Positions 41,146 to 52,748 of a stretch of 64,000 nucleotides of DNA are shown here, piece by piece. Position numbers and translations under genes: made by a program. How positions within the stretch are numbered: position 1 is the stretch's first letter; each line of letters opens with the position of its first letter. This DNA is from Escherichia phage vB_EcoM_G2133, in sequence record MK327928.1; one strand, written 5' to 3'. Under the pieces are notes generated by a model that saw nothing but the letters and a program-made list of their open reading frames with translations, was not told the DNA's origin and ran no database searches.

Positions 41146-41616
41146 TTAATCATGTTTCCACACCCCATCGGTATTTGACCAAAGCCGCTGATTATCTGAT
41201 CCTCGCCACAGCTTTTTAGTCGGAAGATTTTTCTCATACTTCCCATCAATAATAACATCAACATATTTAAGCATTTCTAGTTGTTTAATATCTTCAAACT
41301 TATATCCTGTCCACAACCAAATGCTTTTATTGGGATAAAGATTTTTTACTGTTTGAACAATACAATGAATAACATCTCGATTGTCAGGATAGAGAGGGTC
41401 TCCTCCAGTTATAGTCAATCCTTCTATATAATCATTATTCAAACATTCAATTAATTGTTCTAGTGTTTCACCAGTGAATGGAATACCATTTCTAGCATTC
41501 CATGTTGATTTATTATAACACCCTTCACATTTATGCAAACAACCTGTAACGAAAAGAACGACCCTGCAACCAGGGCCATTCACAAAATCGCAAGGATAAA
41601 ATCTATCATAATTCAT
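41146..41616 (-). CDS. nrdG: anaerobic ribonucleotide reductase activating protein NrdG (radical SAM)
   Basis: 156 aa; CLHKCEGCYN cluster motif. Confidence 0.8.
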   Translation of the reverse strand: MNYDRFYPCDFVNGPGCRVVLFVTGCLHKCEGCYNKSTWNARNGIPFTGETLEQLIECLNNDYIEGLTITGGDPLYPDNRDVIHCIVQTVKNLYPNKSIWLWTGYKFEDIKQLEMLKYVDVIIDGKYEKNLPTKKLWRGSDNQRLWSNTDGVWKHD

Positions 41617-43430
41617 TGGTGTTTAACCCTATGCATGATTTCTTTATTTTTGCCGAGATTAAATCCGCGTTCGTTCGGATTTCCCAAATAACCACATGTT
41701 CTTCTTATGGTATTCATCTTTTTAGGATCAGTTTCTCCACAAATAGAACAAACAAATCCGTTTTCAGTAGGAGTCATTTCATGGGTACTTCCACATGTAA
41801 AACATTTATCTACCGGCATGTTAACACCAAAATAATCTAAATGTTGTGCAGCATAATCCCATACAGCCTCAAGACCTTTTAGATTATTTTTCATATCAGG
41901 AAGTTCAACATAAGAAATGTGACCACCTGTCGCAATGAAATGATATGGCGCTTCACGAGAAATCTTTTCAAACGGAGTAATATTTTCTTCTACTGAAACA
42001 TGGAAACTGTTAGTGTACCAGCCTTTATCAGTAACATCTTTTACACTTCCATATTTTTCTGTATCGAGTTTACAGAAGCGATAACAAAGGTTTTCAGCAG
42101 GAGTAGAATATAAACTAAAAGCAAATCCGGTTCTTTCAGTCCACTGTTTAAGATGGGCATTCATTTTAGTTAAAATTTCCTGTCCAATATCACGACCGAC
42201 AAGAATATTCAATTCGTGAATACCAATGTATCCTAGGGACACTGAACTTCTACCGTTTTTAAATAACTCAATTATGTCGTCATCAGGTTTAAGACGAACC
42301 CCGAATGCACCTTCTTGGTAAAGAATAGGAGCAACAGTAGCTTTAACTCCTTTTAAGGAACTAATTCTACACATCAAAGCTTCAAAACATAAATCCATTC
42401 GTTCATTGAATAATTCAACAAATTTCTGTTCATTGAACTGTGTTCCAATATAAGAATCTAACGCTATGCGAGGAAGATTCAATGTTACAACACCAAGATT
42501 ATTACGTCCATCAAGAATTTCATTACCAGTCGAATCTTTCCATACGCTCAAGAAACTACGGCAACCCATTGGAGAAACAGGAACAGATGAACCAGTGATA
42601 GCTTTATTGTTCTTAGCTGAAATAATATCAGGATACATTCTTTTGCTTGCGCACTCTAAAGCAAGCTGTTTAATATCATAGTTCGGATCGTCTTTATAAA
42701 GATTAACACCTTCTTCAACGAACATAACAAGCTTAGGAAAAATAGGAGTTATCCCATCACGACCGAGACCTTTAATACGATTTTTCAGAATTGCTTTCTG
42801 AATCATTCGTTCAGTCCAGTCAGTTCCCGTACCAAATGTAATTGTTACAAAAGGTGTTTGTCCGTTTGAACTAAAGAGAGTATTTACTTCATATTCATAA
42901 GCTTGGAATGCATCGTATACGTCTTTTTCTGTTTTAGATTGAGCATAATTCAGTGCATCGGCGATTTGCCATTTTTCTGCATCCTCAATATGTTTTGCAT
43001 AGGTACGTTTAACATAAGGAGAAAGTACTTTATCTACATTCGCAAAAGTCGTTCCGCCGTACTGGTGTGAAGCAACCTGTGCAGTAATTTGTGCCATAAT
43101 TGCAGTAGCAACACCGATTAATTTAGGAGTTTCAATCTGCGCATTACCAAGCTTAAATCCGTTCTCAAGCATTCCTTTTAAATCTACTAAACAACAATTA
43201 GTAAATGGAAGAGCAGGGGAATAATCAATATCATGGAAATGGATAATTCCGCTTTCATGCGCTTTCATAATAAAAGACGGGACCATATTTTTGGCAATGT
43301 GTTTAGACACAATACCAGCCATAAGGTCCCGTTGAGTTGGAAAAACACGAGAATCTTTATTAGCATTCTCGTTTAAAAGGTCTTTATTAGTTTTATGAAT
43401 CAATCCTTCAATTTCTTTTTCAATTGTCAT
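41613..43430 (-). CDS. nrdD: anaerobic ribonucleotide reductase NrdD, uninterrupted
   Basis: 605 aa; C-terminal glycyl radical motif RRTCGYLG; zinc ribbon CFTCGS...CSICG. Confidence 0.85.
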   Translation of the reverse strand: MTIEKEIEGLIHKTNKDLLNENANKDSRVFPTQRDLMAGIVSKHIAKNMVPSFIMKAHESGIIHFHDIDYSPALPFTNCCLVDLKGMLENGFKLGNAQIETPKLIGVATAIMAQITAQVASHQYGGTTFANVDKVLSPYVKRTYAKHIEDAEKWQIADALNYAQSKTEKDVYDAFQAYEYEVNTLFSSNGQTPFVTITFGTGTDWTERMIQKAILKNRIKGLGRDGITPIFPKLVMFVEEGVNLYKDDPNYDIKQLALECASKRMYPDIISAKNNKAITGSSVPVSPMGCRSFLSVWKDSTGNEILDGRNNLGVVTLNLPRIALDSYIGTQFNEQKFVELFNERMDLCFEALMCRISSLKGVKATVAPILYQEGAFGVRLKPDDDIIELFKNGRSSVSLGYIGIHELNILVGRDIGQEILTKMNAHLKQWTERTGFAFSLYSTPAENLCYRFCKLDTEKYGSVKDVTDKGWYTNSFHVSVEENITPFEKISREAPYHFIATGGHISYVELPDMKNNLKGLEAVWDYAAQHLDYFGVNMPVDKCFTCGSTHEMTPTENGFVCSICGETDPKKMNTIRRTCGYLGNPNERGFNLGKNKEIMHRVKHQ

Positions 43431-45200: not shown

Positions 45201-45443
45201 TTATTCCTTAATTCCTAGTACTTGTTTAAAAGTCTCGTCGTAATCAAGACTTTGGCCCGTTTGTTCTTTATGTTTGTATATAATATCACTTACTTCTGAT
45301 AGCATATTTTTATATGAACGAGTTAAAGCTGATTTAAGCACGCTGTATCTATCAGGAAATTTACCATGTTCATTATAATAAGCTATTGCTAATTCACGGA
45401 CTGCCTTTTCAGCAGTCTCCATATATTCTTTACGCTTTGTCAT
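45201..45443 (-). CDS. hypothetical protein (start ATG 45443)
   Basis: 80 aa from [13 protein letters not shown]. Confidence 0.4.
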
Positions 45444-45744
45444 TTTCTTCTCGGTCAAATCGGTGTTTACAATGGCGACATTTATAACGAAGATTACTAG
45501 TCTGCCAATGGACCAATTGCACCTGTTCAGTTCCACATTCAGGGCAATTAGGAACGTTTTTAGAAGCACGTTCGCGGCGTTCAACCATGACCATTACAGA
45601 ATCCCAATTAATAGGGCTGCTATAATCATCACAACCATGAATCTTTCCACGCATTTCCAAATCGTCTTCTTCACCGGCCATAATAATTTTAATTAAACTG
45701 GAATTACTTGAAGCTGCAATGTCTTCTAATAGACGCTTTTTCAT
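45430..45744 (-). CDS. zinc-ribbon protein
   Basis: 104 aa; CPECG...CRHCKH. Confidence 0.45.
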
Positions 45745-46673
45745 TTCAATATCTCAATAGCATTACGTAAACCATTTGCTTTTGCATTAAGAGCTTTTAA
45801 CAATTTGGTGTGTTCTGCAATTTGGGCTTCAACTTCAATCAAACGAGCATTGAGATATTCGCGTTCTTCACTCAGATTATCAGCCTTTTCTGCTTTAGGT
45901 TCTTTTACAACTTGCTTATATGTATTAGGGTTCTTCAGTTTAATTAGAATGCGTGAACTGTACAGCATTGAACCATTATCTTCGGTTTCGTCATACATTT
46001 CCACTACGTCCATCATCTCCACCATCGTGCAGAGTTTATAAGACAACGAACGAATAATTTTGTTGTGCTTATTAATTTCTCTAGCTGTCATGGTGCCGAG
46101 ATTACGTGAGTAATAATAAGGAACCTGGATATTAATTAATACTGATGAACCACCTGGCTTGTGTGTTACTTCATCAGCAATAACCCAATCCTTAACATGA
46201 ACTGTATTTGTACGGTCATCTCCCGCGGTAAATAGTTTACGAGCATGCTTAAAAAGCATATTCACTTGGTCATTGAATTGACAAGCGAATTTATCAGCAA
46301 ATTTAGTTTCGGGAATGGTAGATAACCAATCAGCCAAATGGGTCTTTTTAACATCGTTAACAATAGTAAATTCAACCAAATCGGTTATAGATGTCTCAGA
46401 TTTAATGAAGCTCGGCTTCATAAAGTTTTTAATGTTATCACTAGCTACAGTAGAAGATAACAGACGAGAACGTTTAAACCATTGAAGCAAATTGCCTAAC
46501 GAATGAGAATAAGCGTTTTGAGTATCTTTACAGATATGATTTTCCTGGCCAACATATTGAAGGAAATCACGAAGAATATTATTATTGATTACTGCCCTGT
46601 GTCCTATCTGATAATTACGATGTTTAGTAATAAGACTGTCAAAATAATCAATATAATGTTTACGAGTTTTCAT
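45741..46673 (-). CDS. coiled-coil C-terminus protein, paralog 1 of 4
   Basis: 310 aa; shared FRxxLKxIL/ASxL motif and C-terminal heptad-repeat helix. Confidence 0.5.
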   Translation of the reverse strand: MKTRKHYIDYFDSLITKHRNYQIGHRAVINNNILRDFLQYVGQENHICKDTQNAYSHSLGNLLQWFKRSRLLSSTVASDNIKNFMKPSFIKSETSITDLVEFTIVNDVKKTHLADWLSTIPETKFADKFACQFNDQVNMLFKHARKLFTAGDDRTNTVHVKDWVIADEVTHKPGGSSVLINIQVPYYYSRNLGTMTAREINKHNKIIRSLSYKLCTMVEMMDVVEMYDETEDNGSMLYSSRILIKLKNPNTYKQVVKEPKAEKADNLSEEREYLNARLIEVEAQIAEHTKLLKALNAKANGLRNAIEILK

Positions 46674-46725
46674 GTTCTTCTCACTTTGTTAATGATTTGT
46701 ACTCCGAGCCATCCTTGGCTTTAAA

Positions 46726-47727
46726 TTACTTAATTAACTGTAAAGCTTGTTCAAGACGATCAAGACGATTAACAGATTCTTCCCAAATCCTTTTAGCCTG
46801 CTCATATTCTTTCTGCGCTTTATTAGAAATTTCTAGAACTTCTTTATAAGCTTTTTCTAGTGCAATAACTTCTGGACGAATTTCTACCGATTCAGGTGAA
46901 TCATCAAGATTATCCATTAGTTCCTCAAGGGTAGTTTCTTCTTTAGGAGTATTCACAATTTCATCACATTTTTGCTGGTAAATTTCTTTATCAGTCGGTG
47001 AGTACGCACACTTTACTTCACGAAGACTAATTACAATTTTATATCCTTCCCAACCACCCATATTTTTGAAAGGATATGTATGAATACTTTTTACAGTTTC
47101 CATACAATCCAAAGCCGTCTCTAATTGATGAGTTATAGTGCTAGCAATTGAGAAAAATTTATTAATATTCTTTTGGTTAGCTTCTGGTGTAAAAAATTCG
47201 TAATTCACAAAAATAGCTACTTTATTTTTATCAAGCTCATATTCTTTTACGATAATCATATCAGAAGCCAAAGGATGAATTTGACGATAATCGCCATAAC
47301 ATAATTTAGAAGCTGATTTTAGAATTTGTCCTTTAAAAAGTCTGAAATTACTAATCCAACGACGAGTAAAAATATTCTTAGGGTCTTCTTTGATATTAAG
47401 ATGATAAGAATTAACATCACCGAACCAATTGTATCCTATTACACCTTTAGTTCGTTTAATTTCTTTCCCAAAATTACCAAGAATATCCCGATTAACTAAA
47501 TATGAAAGAAGACGAGACCCTTTAAAGATTATCTTAATATCATCTTTATCTACACGGCTAGAAATTTCACGAACTTCATGAATAAATTTACTGGAAGAAA
47601 CAATACTTGCATCAATACTACTGAGCCATTGATTGATAATAGAAAGAACAGCGTTCTGACTAGACATGGGTTTAACTTTATCATCAATAACGCTATTGAA
47701 TGATTTGATATATTCGTTACGAGTCAT
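46726..47727 (-). CDS. coiled-coil C-terminus protein, paralog 2 of 4 (start ATG 47727)
   Basis: 333 aa from MTRNEYIKSF; GAGGAG ribosome-binding site. Confidence 0.5.
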   Translation of the reverse strand: MTRNEYIKSFNSVIDDKVKPMSSQNAVLSIINQWLSSIDASIVSSSKFIHEVREISSRVDKDDIKIIFKGSRLLSYLVNRDILGNFGKEIKRTKGVIGYNWFGDVNSYHLNIKEDPKNIFTRRWISNFRLFKGQILKSASKLCYGDYRQIHPLASDMIIVKEYELDKNKVAIFVNYEFFTPEANQKNINKFFSIASTITHQLETALDCMETVKSIHTYPFKNMGGWEGYKIVISLREVKCAYSPTDKEIYQQKCDEIVNTPKEETTLEELMDNLDDSPESVEIRPEVIALEKAYKEVLEISNKAQKEYEQAKRIWEESVNRLDRLEQALQLIK

Positions 47728-47755
47728 ATTAATCTCCTCAGTAGAAAGTAAGAAC

Positions 47756-47785
47756 ATTATACCACATCCTTGTGGCAAAGTAAAC
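47756..47785 (-). promoter_or_regulatory. T4-type early promoter, near-identical to 2484..2513
   Basis: GTTTAC-tttgccacaaggatgtgg-TATAAT. Confidence 0.6.
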
Positions 47786-48807
47786 TAGTTCAGTGCATTT
47801 AGTGCATTGTTCAGTTTAGAACGTTGCTTTGTCAGATTTTGAACCCTTGACTGAGCTTGTTCTAACGCCTTTTCAGCTTCTAGCACTTCATTGGTCGCTT
47901 TAACGAGTTCATCATCTACTGCCTTAAGAGACTTCTCAATCGCGTCAGCGTGCCATTTTTCTACAGGTTTAAAATTTGAATTTTCAGTAGGAAGAAAACT
48001 CACTTTATTAAGTTTACATGCATCTTTATTACCTGAACTATACATCCAAAATTTAGGATCGTTTGATAAGTAATTAGATAAATTTAAGTTATCTTGCACT
48101 TCCTGCTTTTTCTCTTGTGTAACTTCGTCCTTTCTCAAAAAATCATATTTAAATGAAACGATCATATCAAGTTCATATGTTGTCGTATCTAATTTAAATC
48201 GTTCGAAATGCTGCGAAATCTTAGACTGAACAGCAGAAACAACATCCATATACTTAAATGCTTCTGTCAACTGTGATTTAAGGCATTCACAAATTGAAAG
48301 AGAATTTTTTGTATTAGGTTTAAAGCTAATTCGTGCAGTTCTATTATTTTCTTTTAATGGTCTTACTTCCATCTGAAGAGTATAACCATCAAATTTCAGG
48401 TTCTTTAAGTTAATATCAGAACCTTTTAATCGACTCGCAGTTGATAAAATTTGCTTTAATTGTCTACGGAACAGAGCAATAAATCTCCATTCAATACGAT
48501 AATGATTTGGATTGAAAAATCCAGATGATAAATCGACCTTACTTTGACCAACGCCTTGAACAAATAGAGGATTTTTATAATCAATAGTTTTACAGAAATC
48601 GGTGAGCTGCTCACGAGCAGTCATTTGTGTAATATACCCTGCTTCATTAAAATTACGCACCCATTCACTGCTGTTCAGATGTTTAAAGGCGTGAATGGAA
48701 CAATTAACTTTATTAAGGTCTAAATTATTTTCACACAAAAATGTCATAGCATCACGAGTATAGCTTGCATTACGAACCATATCTTCAATTTGAGAACGAG
48801 TTTTCAT
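47785..48807 (-). CDS. coiled-coil C-terminus protein, paralog 3 of 4
   Basis: 340-aa ORF. Confidence 0.5.
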   Translation of the reverse strand: MKTRSQIEDMVRNASYTRDAMTFLCENNLDLNKVNCSIHAFKHLNSSEWVRNFNEAGYITQMTAREQLTDFCKTIDYKNPLFVQGVGQSKVDLSSGFFNPNHYRIEWRFIALFRRQLKQILSTASRLKGSDINLKNLKFDGYTLQMEVRPLKENNRTARISFKPNTKNSLSICECLKSQLTEAFKYMDVVSAVQSKISQHFERFKLDTTTYELDMIVSFKYDFLRKDEVTQEKKQEVQDNLNLSNYLSNDPKFWMYSSGNKDACKLNKVSFLPTENSNFKPVEKWHADAIEKSLKAVDDELVKATNEVLEAEKALEQAQSRVQNLTKQRSKLNNALNALN

Positions 48808-48815
48808 AGTGTTCC

Positions 48816-49727
48816 TTAAGATTTAAGTAAATCAACAATTTTAATTAATTTTTCACGTTCAGATTTAGCTTTACTACTCAATCCAGATAGTCTAAAGATT
48901 TCATCGTCATATTGTTGAATAGAAATATTCAGCTCTTCAATCTGTTTATTAAAATAATCAATTTGTTCAGAATGTTTTTCATTACTACGAACTGATACAG
49001 GTTTTGTAGGCAATTTAGTTGAACTAGATTCATCCGGGCGATAAATTAAAATACAACTTGAACCAATTGGACATTTTGCACCAGATGAATATTCTAATGT
49101 TCCGGCTTCTTTTAAAACTTCAAAAGCTAAACAGAGATGATGCCCCATATTAACATAATCAGTAGAGCGAGCTCTGATGTAATAATCATCTCCGCGAATA
49201 CTAAATTTAAAGCATTTAAGGTCTTCTGTATTATTGGTCTTAAAAATCATTTGTTTATTTAGACCTTTAGCTAATCGAGCGCCTAATGCTAATAATCGTC
49301 GTTGATTTTCCCACAAATCTGCGATCATTTGGTCAAATGATAATTTCGGCATTAGTCGACCATAAAGGTCGTATCCTTTATTATAATTGCGAAGGATTTC
49401 ACTCGCGTTAATACGGGACAATGCTCCAATTTTATTAAGGGCTTTCATAATGCGATTAGATAAACTCATTCCAGACCCGTTTGTTCGCTGTAAATGTTTT
49501 TCTAATCCAAATCCAATATCAACTTTAAATTTATCTAAAATTTCAGCATGAACATCTCTGTCAATAACATTCAAATCCAGAGTTGGGTTAAATCTATGAA
49601 AAAATTTATCTGGCTCTCCACGACGAAGTACAGTCCATTCATTCATCATTTTTTTATTAACTAAAGATTTAATTACTGCATTGACATTATTAATTACGAC
49701 TGACATATTTTCCTCACTCAATTTCAA
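48816..49727 (-). CDS. coiled-coil C-terminus protein, paralog 4 of 4
   Basis: 303-aa ORF. Confidence 0.5.
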   Translation of the reverse strand: MKLSEENMSVVINNVNAVIKSLVNKKMMNEWTVLRRGEPDKFFHRFNPTLDLNVIDRDVHAEILDKFKVDIGFGLEKHLQRTNGSGMSLSNRIMKALNKIGALSRINASEILRNYNKGYDLYGRLMPKLSFDQMIADLWENQRRLLALGARLAKGLNKQMIFKTNNTEDLKCFKFSIRGDDYYIRARSTDYVNMGHHLCLAFEVLKEAGTLEYSSGAKCPIGSSCILIYRPDESSSTKLPTKPVSVRSNEKHSEQIDYFNKQIEELNISIQQYDDEIFRLSGLSSKAKSEREKLIKIVDLLKS

Positions 49728-50176: not shown

Positions 50177-50704
50177 TTATGCGAGTACCGTCTTTAACCG
50201 TTCTTCAAACTTCCGAAGAGTATTCTGGCGTTCAGCTCTTTGCTTTTTGTAAGTTTCAATACGCTCTGAAATGAGAGTGTATCGTTCATTTACTGATTCT
50301 TTCATAAAATCAGGAATTTCACGAGAAGCTTTAATCTCGTCAAATTTATCAATAACAGCTTGCTCTTCAGCAATTAAGTTATCATACATCAAAATATCTT
50401 TCTTGATGAACTCAATATCTTCTTGAGTTACACGAGATAATTTAGATGCTTTATCCTTTTTGTACTGTTCGTTAGTATCACGAGACCAGTGTAATGTACG
50501 ATTTTTATTCGTATTCTTGTAAATTTCTACAATACCAATCTCATCGATAATAACGATCCAATTCCAACGGGATTTGTAAATTTGTCCTCCATCAACAGTG
50601 ATTTCACCTCCAATTGAGATGTCATTAAAGAACTTGCTTTGTGCTTCAGATTTAAATTTACCATCGTTGTAATTTACCAGGTTGAAAATATCTTTAGCGT
50701 TCAT
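50177..50704 (-). CDS. hypothetical protein (start ATG 50704)
   Basis: 175 aa from MNAKDIFNL; GGAGG ribosome-binding site. Confidence 0.45.
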   Translation of the reverse strand: MNAKDIFNLVNYNDGKFKSEAQSKFFNDISIGGEITVDGGQIYKSRWNWIVIIDEIGIVEIYKNTNKNRTLHWSRDTNEQYKKDKASKLSRVTQEDIEFIKKDILMYDNLIAEEQAVIDKFDEIKASREIPDFMKESVNERYTLISERIETYKKQRAERQNTLRKFEERLKTVLA

Positions 50705-51168: not shown

Positions 51169-52137
51169 TTATTTCAGAAGAGTAACCTCAGCAATTTCTT
51201 CCCAACCGTTTTTGTCGGTCATAATAAAGTCAGCAAGATAAAGTGCAGTACGCAGTGAAACATTGCGTAAACGGTTAACATTGACTTTCATCCATGATAA
51301 TGCTTTATAAGTTTCTTCATCAGAAAGACCGCGCTTTTGCATCATGTCGGTTGAAAGAATAACATCTTCAACCCTGACCATAATTTCTTCATTAGTGTGA
51401 ACACCCAAATCTAAATAAACTGAGCGGGACACTAATGCTTGTAAATGTGGAGCAAGTTTAGTACCACGGTCTAATTCGCGGTCAATATCAACGTTTGTGA
51501 TAAAAACAATCGTTCCTTTAAATTCAAACTCACGCTCAATGCCTTTTTCTTCTAAGTAAGAAGATGCAGTGCTCCAGCAGACTTTACGGGTCTCTCCAGT
51601 GTCCAGAGCAGCTTTCAGAAGATTAAGAATGTCCATATCAGAGAAAACATCCACATCATCAATCAAAAGGACAGAATTCTCTTCACGATTATTCCAGAGC
51701 TGTTCATAAAGACCGATACCAGAGATTTTACCGTTAATGCTTTTATATTCAATGTATCCAATATCATTTGCTTTATTTAAAGCTTTATCTAAAGAATACG
51801 TTTTACCAATACCTGCTGCTCCCGAGATAATTAATGAACGAATGTTTCCGTTAATAATACCATTCGTCATCATTCCCATAACATTAAATCTTTTATTAAT
51901 GCGGGTTTTCATATCTTCATATGATTCTTTAACTTCTTCAACTTTTACACCATCATATGAAATGTCTGATTTGTAAACCCAAACACCGCGACGTTTACCG
52001 TCAATTTCAACAAAAACTTTACCATCTCCTTGTGCATCTACTGGAGCATTATCTGGGAACCATTCGCCTAAGAGCTCAAAAGTTCCAGAGATTTCTTTAC
52101 CGAAGTAGATACCCTTATTGATAGTTACAGTTTTCAT
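51169..52137 (-). CDS. P-loop ATPase (AAA-like)
   Basis: 322 aa from MKTVTINKG; Walker A GAAGIGKT; Walker B LLIDDVD. Confidence 0.55.
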   Translation of the reverse strand: MKTVTINKGIYFGKEISGTFELLGEWFPDNAPVDAQGDGKVFVEIDGKRRGVWVYKSDISYDGVKVEEVKESYEDMKTRINKRFNVMGMMTNGIINGNIRSLIISGAAGIGKTYSLDKALNKANDIGYIEYKSINGKISGIGLYEQLWNNREENSVLLIDDVDVFSDMDILNLLKAALDTGETRKVCWSTASSYLEEKGIEREFEFKGTIVFITNVDIDRELDRGTKLAPHLQALVSRSVYLDLGVHTNEEIMVRVEDVILSTDMMQKRGLSDEETYKALSWMKVNVNRLRNVSLRTALYLADFIMTDKNGWEEIAEVTLLK

Positions 52138-52174
52138 TTTATTCTCCAAATCTGTATCAGTAGTTGATAGTTGT

Positions 52175-52262: not shown

Positions 52263-52748
52263 TTATTCCATTTCTATTATATGCATGTTCTTTTTGCTAT
52301 CAAAATATATGTTTTTAACTGTTAACTCCGAATTAATTGGCAATAAAAACTCTCTTTCATAATCTACCATACAAAGGTTATCATAAAGCTTGTTAAGCTT
52401 ATCATCGTCAGTTTGGCCAGATTCTTCAATTGCGATTAAATTTTCTAAAATGTCAATCATAGCAGTCGAATAGTCAAAAACGTTTGCATTTTTTAACACT
52501 ACTAAAACATTAGTCATATAGCGTTCTGCAGCAAACGTTTCAGCTATATGAGACTCACTGCTAAAGGAAGTTATTCTTTTAAATTTGATTCTCCTATTAA
52601 CTTCAAACTTATAAGATAGCACTTCCTCTATTGTAAGTCCTCTAAAAAGTGTGTCTTTAATCTCAAGTTTGTCTTTAATGTAATCATTAACACGCTTATG
52701 ATTAAAATTATTAATTTTGTTGCCAAGGCATTGCATTAAAATATGCAT
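52263..52748 (-). CDS. hypothetical protein
   Basis: 161-aa ORF. Confidence 0.45.
   Translation of the reverse strand: MHILMQCLGNKINNFNHKRVNDYIKDKLEIKDTLFRGLTIEEVLSYKFEVNRRIKFKRITSFSSESHIAETFAAERYMTNVLVVLKNANVFDYSTAMIDILENLIAIEESGQTDDDKLNKLYDNLCMVDYEREFLLPINSELTVKNIYFDSKKNMHIIEME

Follow-up and report, generated by a model that had tools for sequence, protein, structure and literature searches.

A block of four open reading frames (ORFs) on the minus strand of Escherichia phage vB_EcoM_G2133 (record MK327928.1), corresponding to the genes nrdC.3, nrdC.4, nrdC.5 and nrdC.6 of phage T4, forms the subject of the present analysis, in which a stretch of 64,000 nucleotides of this phage (hereafter referred to as the window) was considered. 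The 3,987-base region covering the block matches 650 phage records with a top identity of 96.5%, and the records that carry gene names label the ORFs accordingly. On sequence grounds, the source is a T4-like phage of the genus Tequatrovirus and the four ORFs are orthologues of T4 nrdC.3-nrdC.6, the encoded proteins being 60%, 89%, 93% and 98% identical, respectively, to those of the T4 reference, and the block is flanked by nrdC.2 and nrdC.7 in the same gene order as in T4. A sequence-only reading of the window had placed the array between nrdC and a membrane protein and proposed it as an undescribed host-interaction module of four tandem paralogues. The block does not adjoin nrdC, however, and its genes are long annotated in T4, nrdC.5 with a published role in overcoming a host defence system. 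The family relationship and the domain map reported here are modest additions to the knowledge of known T4 genes.

Gene content of the block

The four consecutive ORFs are all real and occupy positions 45741-49706, minus strand. The nrdC.3 orthologue (45741-46673) encodes 310 amino acids (aa) and represents an allele other than that of T4, with a synonymous divergence (dS) of about 1. The nrdC.4 orthologue (46726-47727, 333 aa) starts at an ATG with GAGGAG upstream, and just upstream of this gene, on the same strand, lies a match to the sigma-70 promoter consensus with an extended -10 element (47756-47784; TTTACT, a spacer of 17 nt and TG-TATAAT), a consensus match only, which we take to resemble the T4 early promoters. 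The nrdC.5 orthologue (47785-48807, 340 aa) belongs to the Pfam family DUF7235 (PF23882; 383.6 bits against a cut-off of 30, E 1e-114), is alignable with T4 NrdC.5 over its full 340 aa and has the same neighbours. The nrdC.6 orthologue occupies 48816-49706. Its true start codon is the ATG at 49706, since this codon follows GAGGAAAAT, directly after the nrdC.7 stop codon, and the homologues have 295-296 aa; the protein therefore has 296 aa. Thus, three of the four lengths given previously (310, 333 and 340 aa) stand, while the fourth (303 aa) belongs to ORF 48816-49727, a mechanical TTG extension of nrdC.6.

In T4 itself, the reference copy of nrdC.6 (locus L001, NC_000866, 9996-10200) differs from the intact copy in the window (48800-49010) by a 1-nt deletion, and the resulting frameshift leaves an annotated product of only 275 aa; the +1 frame still encodes the conserved C-terminal helix.

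Relationships and domain organisation of the four proteins

The homology among the four proteins was examined with pairwise BLASTP and phmmer comparisons, of which only those between NrdC.3 and NrdC.4 revealed a relationship. NrdC.3 and NrdC.4 are clearly paralogues by sequence comparison: the two proteins match in blastp with an E-value of 2e-5, the hidden Markov model (HMM) of the NrdC.4 family matches NrdC.3 with an E-value of 7e-18, and both are assigned to PHROG 1435 (E-values 3e-114 and 1.9e-165, respectively). Homologues of NrdC.4 down to 39% identity carry the precomputed Pfam family PF26897 (NrdC.3/NrdC.4 family).

NrdC.5 is probably a distant homologue of this pair, as judged from profile comparisons. 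DUF7235 has no match in NrdC.3, NrdC.4 or NrdC.6, a first hhalign comparison of NrdC.5 with shallow profiles was negative (Prob 7%), and an exhaustive HMMER search with the NrdC.5 profile recovered only 13 representatives, none of them from the families of NrdC.3, NrdC.4 or NrdC.6. The relationship reaches significance only with profiles enriched in distant members, namely the proteins P0225, P0228 and P0235 from the exhaustive search together with the Gaprivervirus, Mosigvirus and IMG/VR orthologues. With these, NrdC.5 matches the NrdC.3/NrdC.4 family with Prob 91% and P about 1e-6 in local mode and with Prob 97% and P 4e-10 in global mode. Removal of the C-terminal coil leaves a local P of 8e-5, a score reached by none of 40 block shuffles. 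An N-terminal M(K)TRxxYI is common to NrdC.3, NrdC.4 and NrdC.5. The central motifs pointed out in the sequence-only reading were located in all three proteins and are placed in register by the profile-profile alignment: the motif helices WRFIALFRRQLKQILSTASRL in NrdC.5 (aa 107-127; 48427-48489, minus strand) and RRWISNFRLFKGQILKSASKL in NrdC.4 (aa 122-142; 47302-47364, minus strand), and the shorter motif LFKHARKLFTAG in NrdC.3 (aa 140-151; 46221-46256, minus strand).

The position of NrdC.6 is different. It matches PHROG 2257 (E 3.3e-150), all its homologues carry Pfam PF26899, and hhalign comparisons of its profile with the other families are all non-significant (P 0.004-0.25, Prob 4% or less), two of 40 shuffles reaching the score of the coil-trimmed protein. 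The formal alignment of the four, which had been named as a possible refutation should it show no homology, supports NrdC.3-NrdC.4, renders NrdC.5 a probable relative and does not demonstrate the homology of NrdC.6, so that three of the four proteins would form a family and NrdC.6 would share only their layout. A placement of NrdC.6 outside the family altogether, its likeness to the others (a helix motif ending in A-R-L-x-x-G and the C-terminal helix) being convergent or fortuitous, is considered a serious possibility, somewhat short of an even chance. The assignment to separate PHROG and Pfam families, the different N-terminus and the slower evolutionary rate of NrdC.6 favour such a placement together with the hhalign results, whereas four observations speak for a relationship. 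The colinear global alignment of NrdC.6 to NrdC.3/NrdC.4 pairs the look-alike landmarks and beats 40 of 40 block shuffles (z 4.2); the adjacency of nrdC.6, nrdC.5 and the nrdC.3/4-type gene is kept across genera; the linker of the Mosigvirus NrdC.6 aligns in register with the NrdC.4 linker (E 2.5e-4 in a search of three sequences); and a natural in-frame hybrid of NrdC.6 and NrdC.4 exists (see below). The neighbouring nrdC.8 (50177-50704) was considered as a fifth member and likewise ends in a long helical tail, but no resemblance between it and the four proteins was found.

A long putative helix is located at the C-terminus of each protein: aa 263-310 of NrdC.3 (45744-45887), aa 285-333 of NrdC.4 (46729-46875; 285-332 in the AlphaFold2 model), aa 281-340 of NrdC.5 (47788-47967; 281-339 in the AlphaFold2 model, with a predicted local distance difference test score, pLDDT, of 72-92) and the last 48 aa of NrdC.6 (48819-48962), all on the minus strand. 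Most comparisons of orthologues, those of NrdC.4 included, show the highest conservation in this segment, and all four proteins end in ...L..[AI][LIV]..L[KN]. The picture for the tails as long heptad-repeat helices is mixed: the helices of NrdC.4 and NrdC.5 are predicted structurally, and by a heptad score too crude to decide on coiled coils in NrdC.4 and NrdC.6, the tails of NrdC.3 and NrdC.5 beat shuffled sequences and those of NrdC.4 and NrdC.6 do not.

The AlphaFold2 model of NrdC.4 is confident (pLDDT 84.6, predicted template modelling score 0.69) and comprises a helical bundle (3-84), a beta-meander (88-110), the motif helices (119-148), a strand-helix-strand sandwich (158-235), a further helix (246-259), a disordered linker (260-284) and the C-terminal helix. 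Comparison with predicted viral structures recovered only uncharacterised phage proteins, most of them of 300-370 aa and two labelled "thioredoxin, phage-associated", from phages of Enterobacter, Acinetobacter, Pectobacterium, Klebsiella, Erwinia, Serratia, Yersinia and Aeromonas, which are presumably largely T4-like, as judged from their names. A confident match to a known housekeeping family, an outcome that the sequence-only reading had named as refuting its proposal, was not found for the model, nor was an enzyme-like match. Scans of the four proteins against Pfam, NCBIfam and PADLOC yielded no functional match, sequence searches of the PDB and the NCBIfam and PADLOC scans giving sub-threshold noise only.

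Distribution, gene order and natural variation

Searches of 50,697 phage records with tblastn identified nrdC.3 in 653, nrdC.4 in 553, nrdC.5 in 548 and nrdC.6 in 741 records. The gene order is nrdC.6-nrdC.5-nrdC.4-nrdC.3 in Tequatrovirus, nrdC.6-(71-aa membrane ORF)-nrdC.5-nrdC.4 type in Gaprivervirus (UPEC07), nrdC.6-nrdC.5-nrdC.3 type in Mosigvirus, and the more divergent IMG/VR loci have the same three-gene order as UPEC07. The trio of nrdC.6, nrdC.5 and an nrdC.3/4-type gene is old, as it is kept across Tevenvirinae genera, and both the nrdC.3 and the nrdC.4 types are retained in Tequatrovirus only. The array, which had been read as a locally amplified family, is not a recent amplification of four copies, only nrdC.3 and nrdC.4 being close paralogues. 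The 71-aa ORF of UPEC07 (locus L007, 5763-5978) is annotated between the nrdC.6 and nrdC.5 homologues and probably encodes a membrane protein; the more divergent IMG/VR loci (L012-L021) have a gap of similar size at this position, and Tequatrovirus has no such ORF.

Several natural variants of the block were found. Phage ACG-C40 (locus L023, 4805-5216) has kept only nrdC.6 of the four genes, besides a stub of nrdC.5 (71 aa) and remains of the nrdC.3 tail. In Salmonella phage Manna (locus L024, 3215-4252), nrdC.5 is deleted and residues 1-262 of NrdC.6 are fused in frame to residues 251-333 of NrdC.4 at a shared DEI, the hybrid thus consisting of an NrdC.6 head with the linker and coil of NrdC.4. 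Phage Pinarejo (locus L025, 4001-4141) has lost nrdC.6 except for its last 47 codons, and in the 169,650-bp IMG/VR contig of loci L004/L015 (9054-10086) nrdC.4 is split into ORFs of 193 and 158 aa. A metagenomic protein, P0056, joins residues 147-267 of NrdC.5 to NrdC.3 from residue 138 to its end, out of register and without nrdC.4; recombination between paralogues in register was rejected as its origin, NrdC.5 at about residue 267 being joined to NrdC.3 at about residue 138. A further protein, P0230 (locus L022, an 803-bp ENA contig, 120-641), is encoded directly upstream of nrdC.4 and has 173 aa, with an unrelated N-terminus of 118 aa and a near-identical NrdC.5 C-terminal helix, and is the product of a head swap or, alternatively, a chimera of the assembly.

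The ratio of nonsynonymous to synonymous substitution rates (dN/dS) was calculated pairwise between the window and seven relatives. It is 0.15-0.32 for nrdC.3, nrdC.4 and nrdC.5, and at most 0.1 in the majority of comparisons for the flanking nrdD, gp49, nrdC, nrdC.8 and nrdC.10. The genes nrdC.2 (45430-45744) and nrdC.3 occur as deeply diverged alleles (dS about 1; identities of 57-79% for nrdC.2 and 60% for nrdC.3) in Tequatroviruses that are otherwise about 95% identical, which indicates a cassette-like allelic exchange, and the nrdC.3 allele of the window is nearer to that of Mosigvirus (about 75%) than to that of T4 (about 60%). Deletions, in-frame hybrids, frameshifts, the allelic replacement of nrdC.3 and the raised dN/dS together characterise the genes as dispensable and rapidly evolving.

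A possible role in counter-defence

The published evidence for a function concerns nrdC.5. Srikant, Guegler & Laub (eLife 2022; PMC9391042) described an evolved T4 deletion clone unable to infect ECOR17 and found that expression of T4 nrdC.5, which they call an early gene, restores its plating on cells carrying Dsr1, a SIR2 defence that depletes NAD. The clone lacking nrdC.5 retained the ability to plate on MG1655, and none of the 62 essential genes was among those deleted in the evolved clones (PMC9391042). Dsr1 is an NADase of the SIR2 type and has a TPR sensor in common with Avs7, by which the phage major capsid protein is recognised (PMC12803255). In 2026, Dsr1 was still described as poorly characterised (PMC13464706).

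We consider it reasonably probable that the block is an early, dispensable counter-defence gene family built on one scaffold and encoding non-enzymatic proteins, with less confidence in the mechanistic details and in the inclusion of nrdC.6 than in the overall explanation. NrdC.3, NrdC.4 and NrdC.5 would be diverged copies of one scaffold, in which an N-terminal helical bundle starting with M(K)TRxxYI precedes a central alpha/beta domain that begins with the conserved helix motif, and a disordered, frequently acidic linker then leads to a conserved amphipathic helix of about 50 residues at the C-terminus; NrdC.6 would have the same layout, its common origin not being provable. The proteins are probably stoichiometric binders, because the searches revealed neither an enzymatic family nor a catalytic motif in them. 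The variable head may contact a host immune protein, in the case of NrdC.5 possibly Dsr1, at its TPR sensor or its SIR2 domain, and NrdC.5 would be made early in infection, before the capsid protein appears, while the conserved C-terminal helix could provide oligomerisation or docking. More speculatively, NrdC.3, NrdC.4 and NrdC.6 might likewise neutralise other host defences or defence variants.

The orthology and synteny with T4, the published Dsr1 complementation, the sensing of capsid protein by Dsr1, the homology of NrdC.3, NrdC.4 and NrdC.5, the NrdC.4 model with its lack of enzyme-like matches, the promoter-like site upstream of nrdC.4, the dispensability, turnover and raised dN/dS of the genes and the conservation of the C-terminal helix are counted in favour of this explanation. 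The suspicion of an arms race raised by the sequence-only reading holds in spirit: the anti-Dsr1 role of nrdC.5 and the turnover described above agree with it. Several points weigh on the other side. The experimental support is genetic, covers nrdC.5 only and was obtained with T4, so that an anti-Dsr1 activity of the copy in the window is predicted from its likeness to the T4 protein. In the literature searched, no binding or biochemical data for NrdC.5 and no link of NrdC.3, NrdC.4 or NrdC.6 to any defence system were found, nor, beyond the study of Srikant et al., any report on the anti-Dsr1 mechanism of NrdC.5, on DUF7235 or on the other three genes. The AlphaFold2 model of NrdC.5 is poor (pLDDT 50.6, shallow alignment), its elements following the order of NrdC.4 from the motif helix onwards. 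NrdC.3, NrdC.5 and NrdC.6 are basic (isoelectric point about 9), which would also fit nucleic-acid binding; nrdC.6 evolves slowly (dN/dS 0.02-0.17); and dN/dS is below 1 throughout, so that positive selection is not shown.

Some of these points would equally suit a division of roles in which only nrdC.5 serves counter-defence, while the products of nrdC.3, nrdC.4 and nrdC.6 serve early in host takeover or regulation, bind nucleic acid of host or phage or else housekeeping proteins, and are dispensable on laboratory hosts for other reasons. The basic charge of NrdC.3, NrdC.5 and NrdC.6, the dN/dS below 1 and the lack of a defence link for nrdC.3, nrdC.4 and nrdC.6 in the literature searched are in keeping with such roles, and many T4 early genes are dispensable. 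The three genes, however, have a scaffold and a gene block in common with an experimentally supported counter-defence gene, and it is host-range genes that more typically undergo such frequent loss and allelic replacement in nature. We regard this division as unlikely, though worth keeping in mind. For virion proteins or otherwise essential housekeeping proteins there speaks a weak resemblance in fold to tail proteins: the NrdC.4 model matches, below confident thresholds, the tail terminator/completion fold (lambda gpU, T5 p142, DUF3168). NrdC.4 differs from that fold in its additional helical bundle and long C-terminal helix, and the promoter match upstream of nrdC.4 and the description of nrdC.5 as early point to expression in the early and not the late phase. 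Between one and three of the genes are missing from natural phages, and the T4 clone and the spared essential genes described above agree with this dispensability. A virion or housekeeping role is effectively excluded because the genes are dispensable, which, together with their location in a block with the early gene nrdC.5, also argues against a role as a gpU-like terminator, a late virion protein that caps the tail tube as a hexamer. The resemblance might instead mean that the central domain mimics or derives from a tail-terminator-like structural protein and acts as an early decoy occupying host sensors of phage structural proteins, which seems very improbable. A broader form of the counter-defence explanation, hardly less improbable, would have one ancient scaffold, a variable head with a conserved C-terminal helix, diversified in T-even phages into multi-target immune-receptor blockers, their central domain derived from or mimicking such a protein, as early decoys for sensors of structural proteins (the TPR of Dsr1/Avs7 and others), with heads swapped among paralogues by recombination in the linker/coil region; the hybrid of phage Manna and the head-swapped P0230 may be likened to such exchanges.

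Two known systems invite comparison with the proposed counter-defence family. DSAD1 of an SPbeta-type phage, which inhibits DSR2, is reported to act by binding it and has been solved structurally in complexes with it, would be a functional analogue of NrdC.5 as a phage protein blocking a defence-associated sirtuin; no sequence or fold similarity to DSAD1 was found, however, the target differs (Dsr1, with its capsid-sensing TPR), and the blocking by NrdC.5 is known genetically. The T4 dmd-tifA-adfA 'anti-TA island' is likewise a cluster of small, early, dispensable genes countering host immunity, but its proteins are unrelated, whereas neighbours in the nrdC.3-nrdC.6 block are themselves paralogues.

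If NrdC.5 belongs to a scaffold family of three or four members that is conserved among Tevenvirinae genera and has structural relatives in the T4-like phages of further hosts, nrdC.3, nrdC.4 and nrdC.6 become candidate counter-defence genes, the division into head and C-terminal helix provides a domain map for mutagenesis, and the natural hybrids can be exploited. The practical benefit would lie in forecasting and engineering which hosts T4-like therapeutic phages can infect, an incremental gain rather than a new kind of system.

A few features of the neighbouring genes were also observed. The gene nrdC.10 (51169-52149) shows weak matches to AAA/STAND-like NTPases, below the Pfam thresholds. 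Just past it, a 161-aa ORF (52263-52748, minus strand) with no Pfam match has no T4 counterpart at that position, and in ACG-C40 the ORF that corresponds to it in size and location carries the annotation of a ModB-like ADP-ribosylase. On the other side of the block, nrdD is one uninterrupted ORF of 605 aa (41613-43430) with gene 49 directly after it, whereas the T4 reference has the I-TevII intron in nrdD and mobC between nrdG and nrdD.

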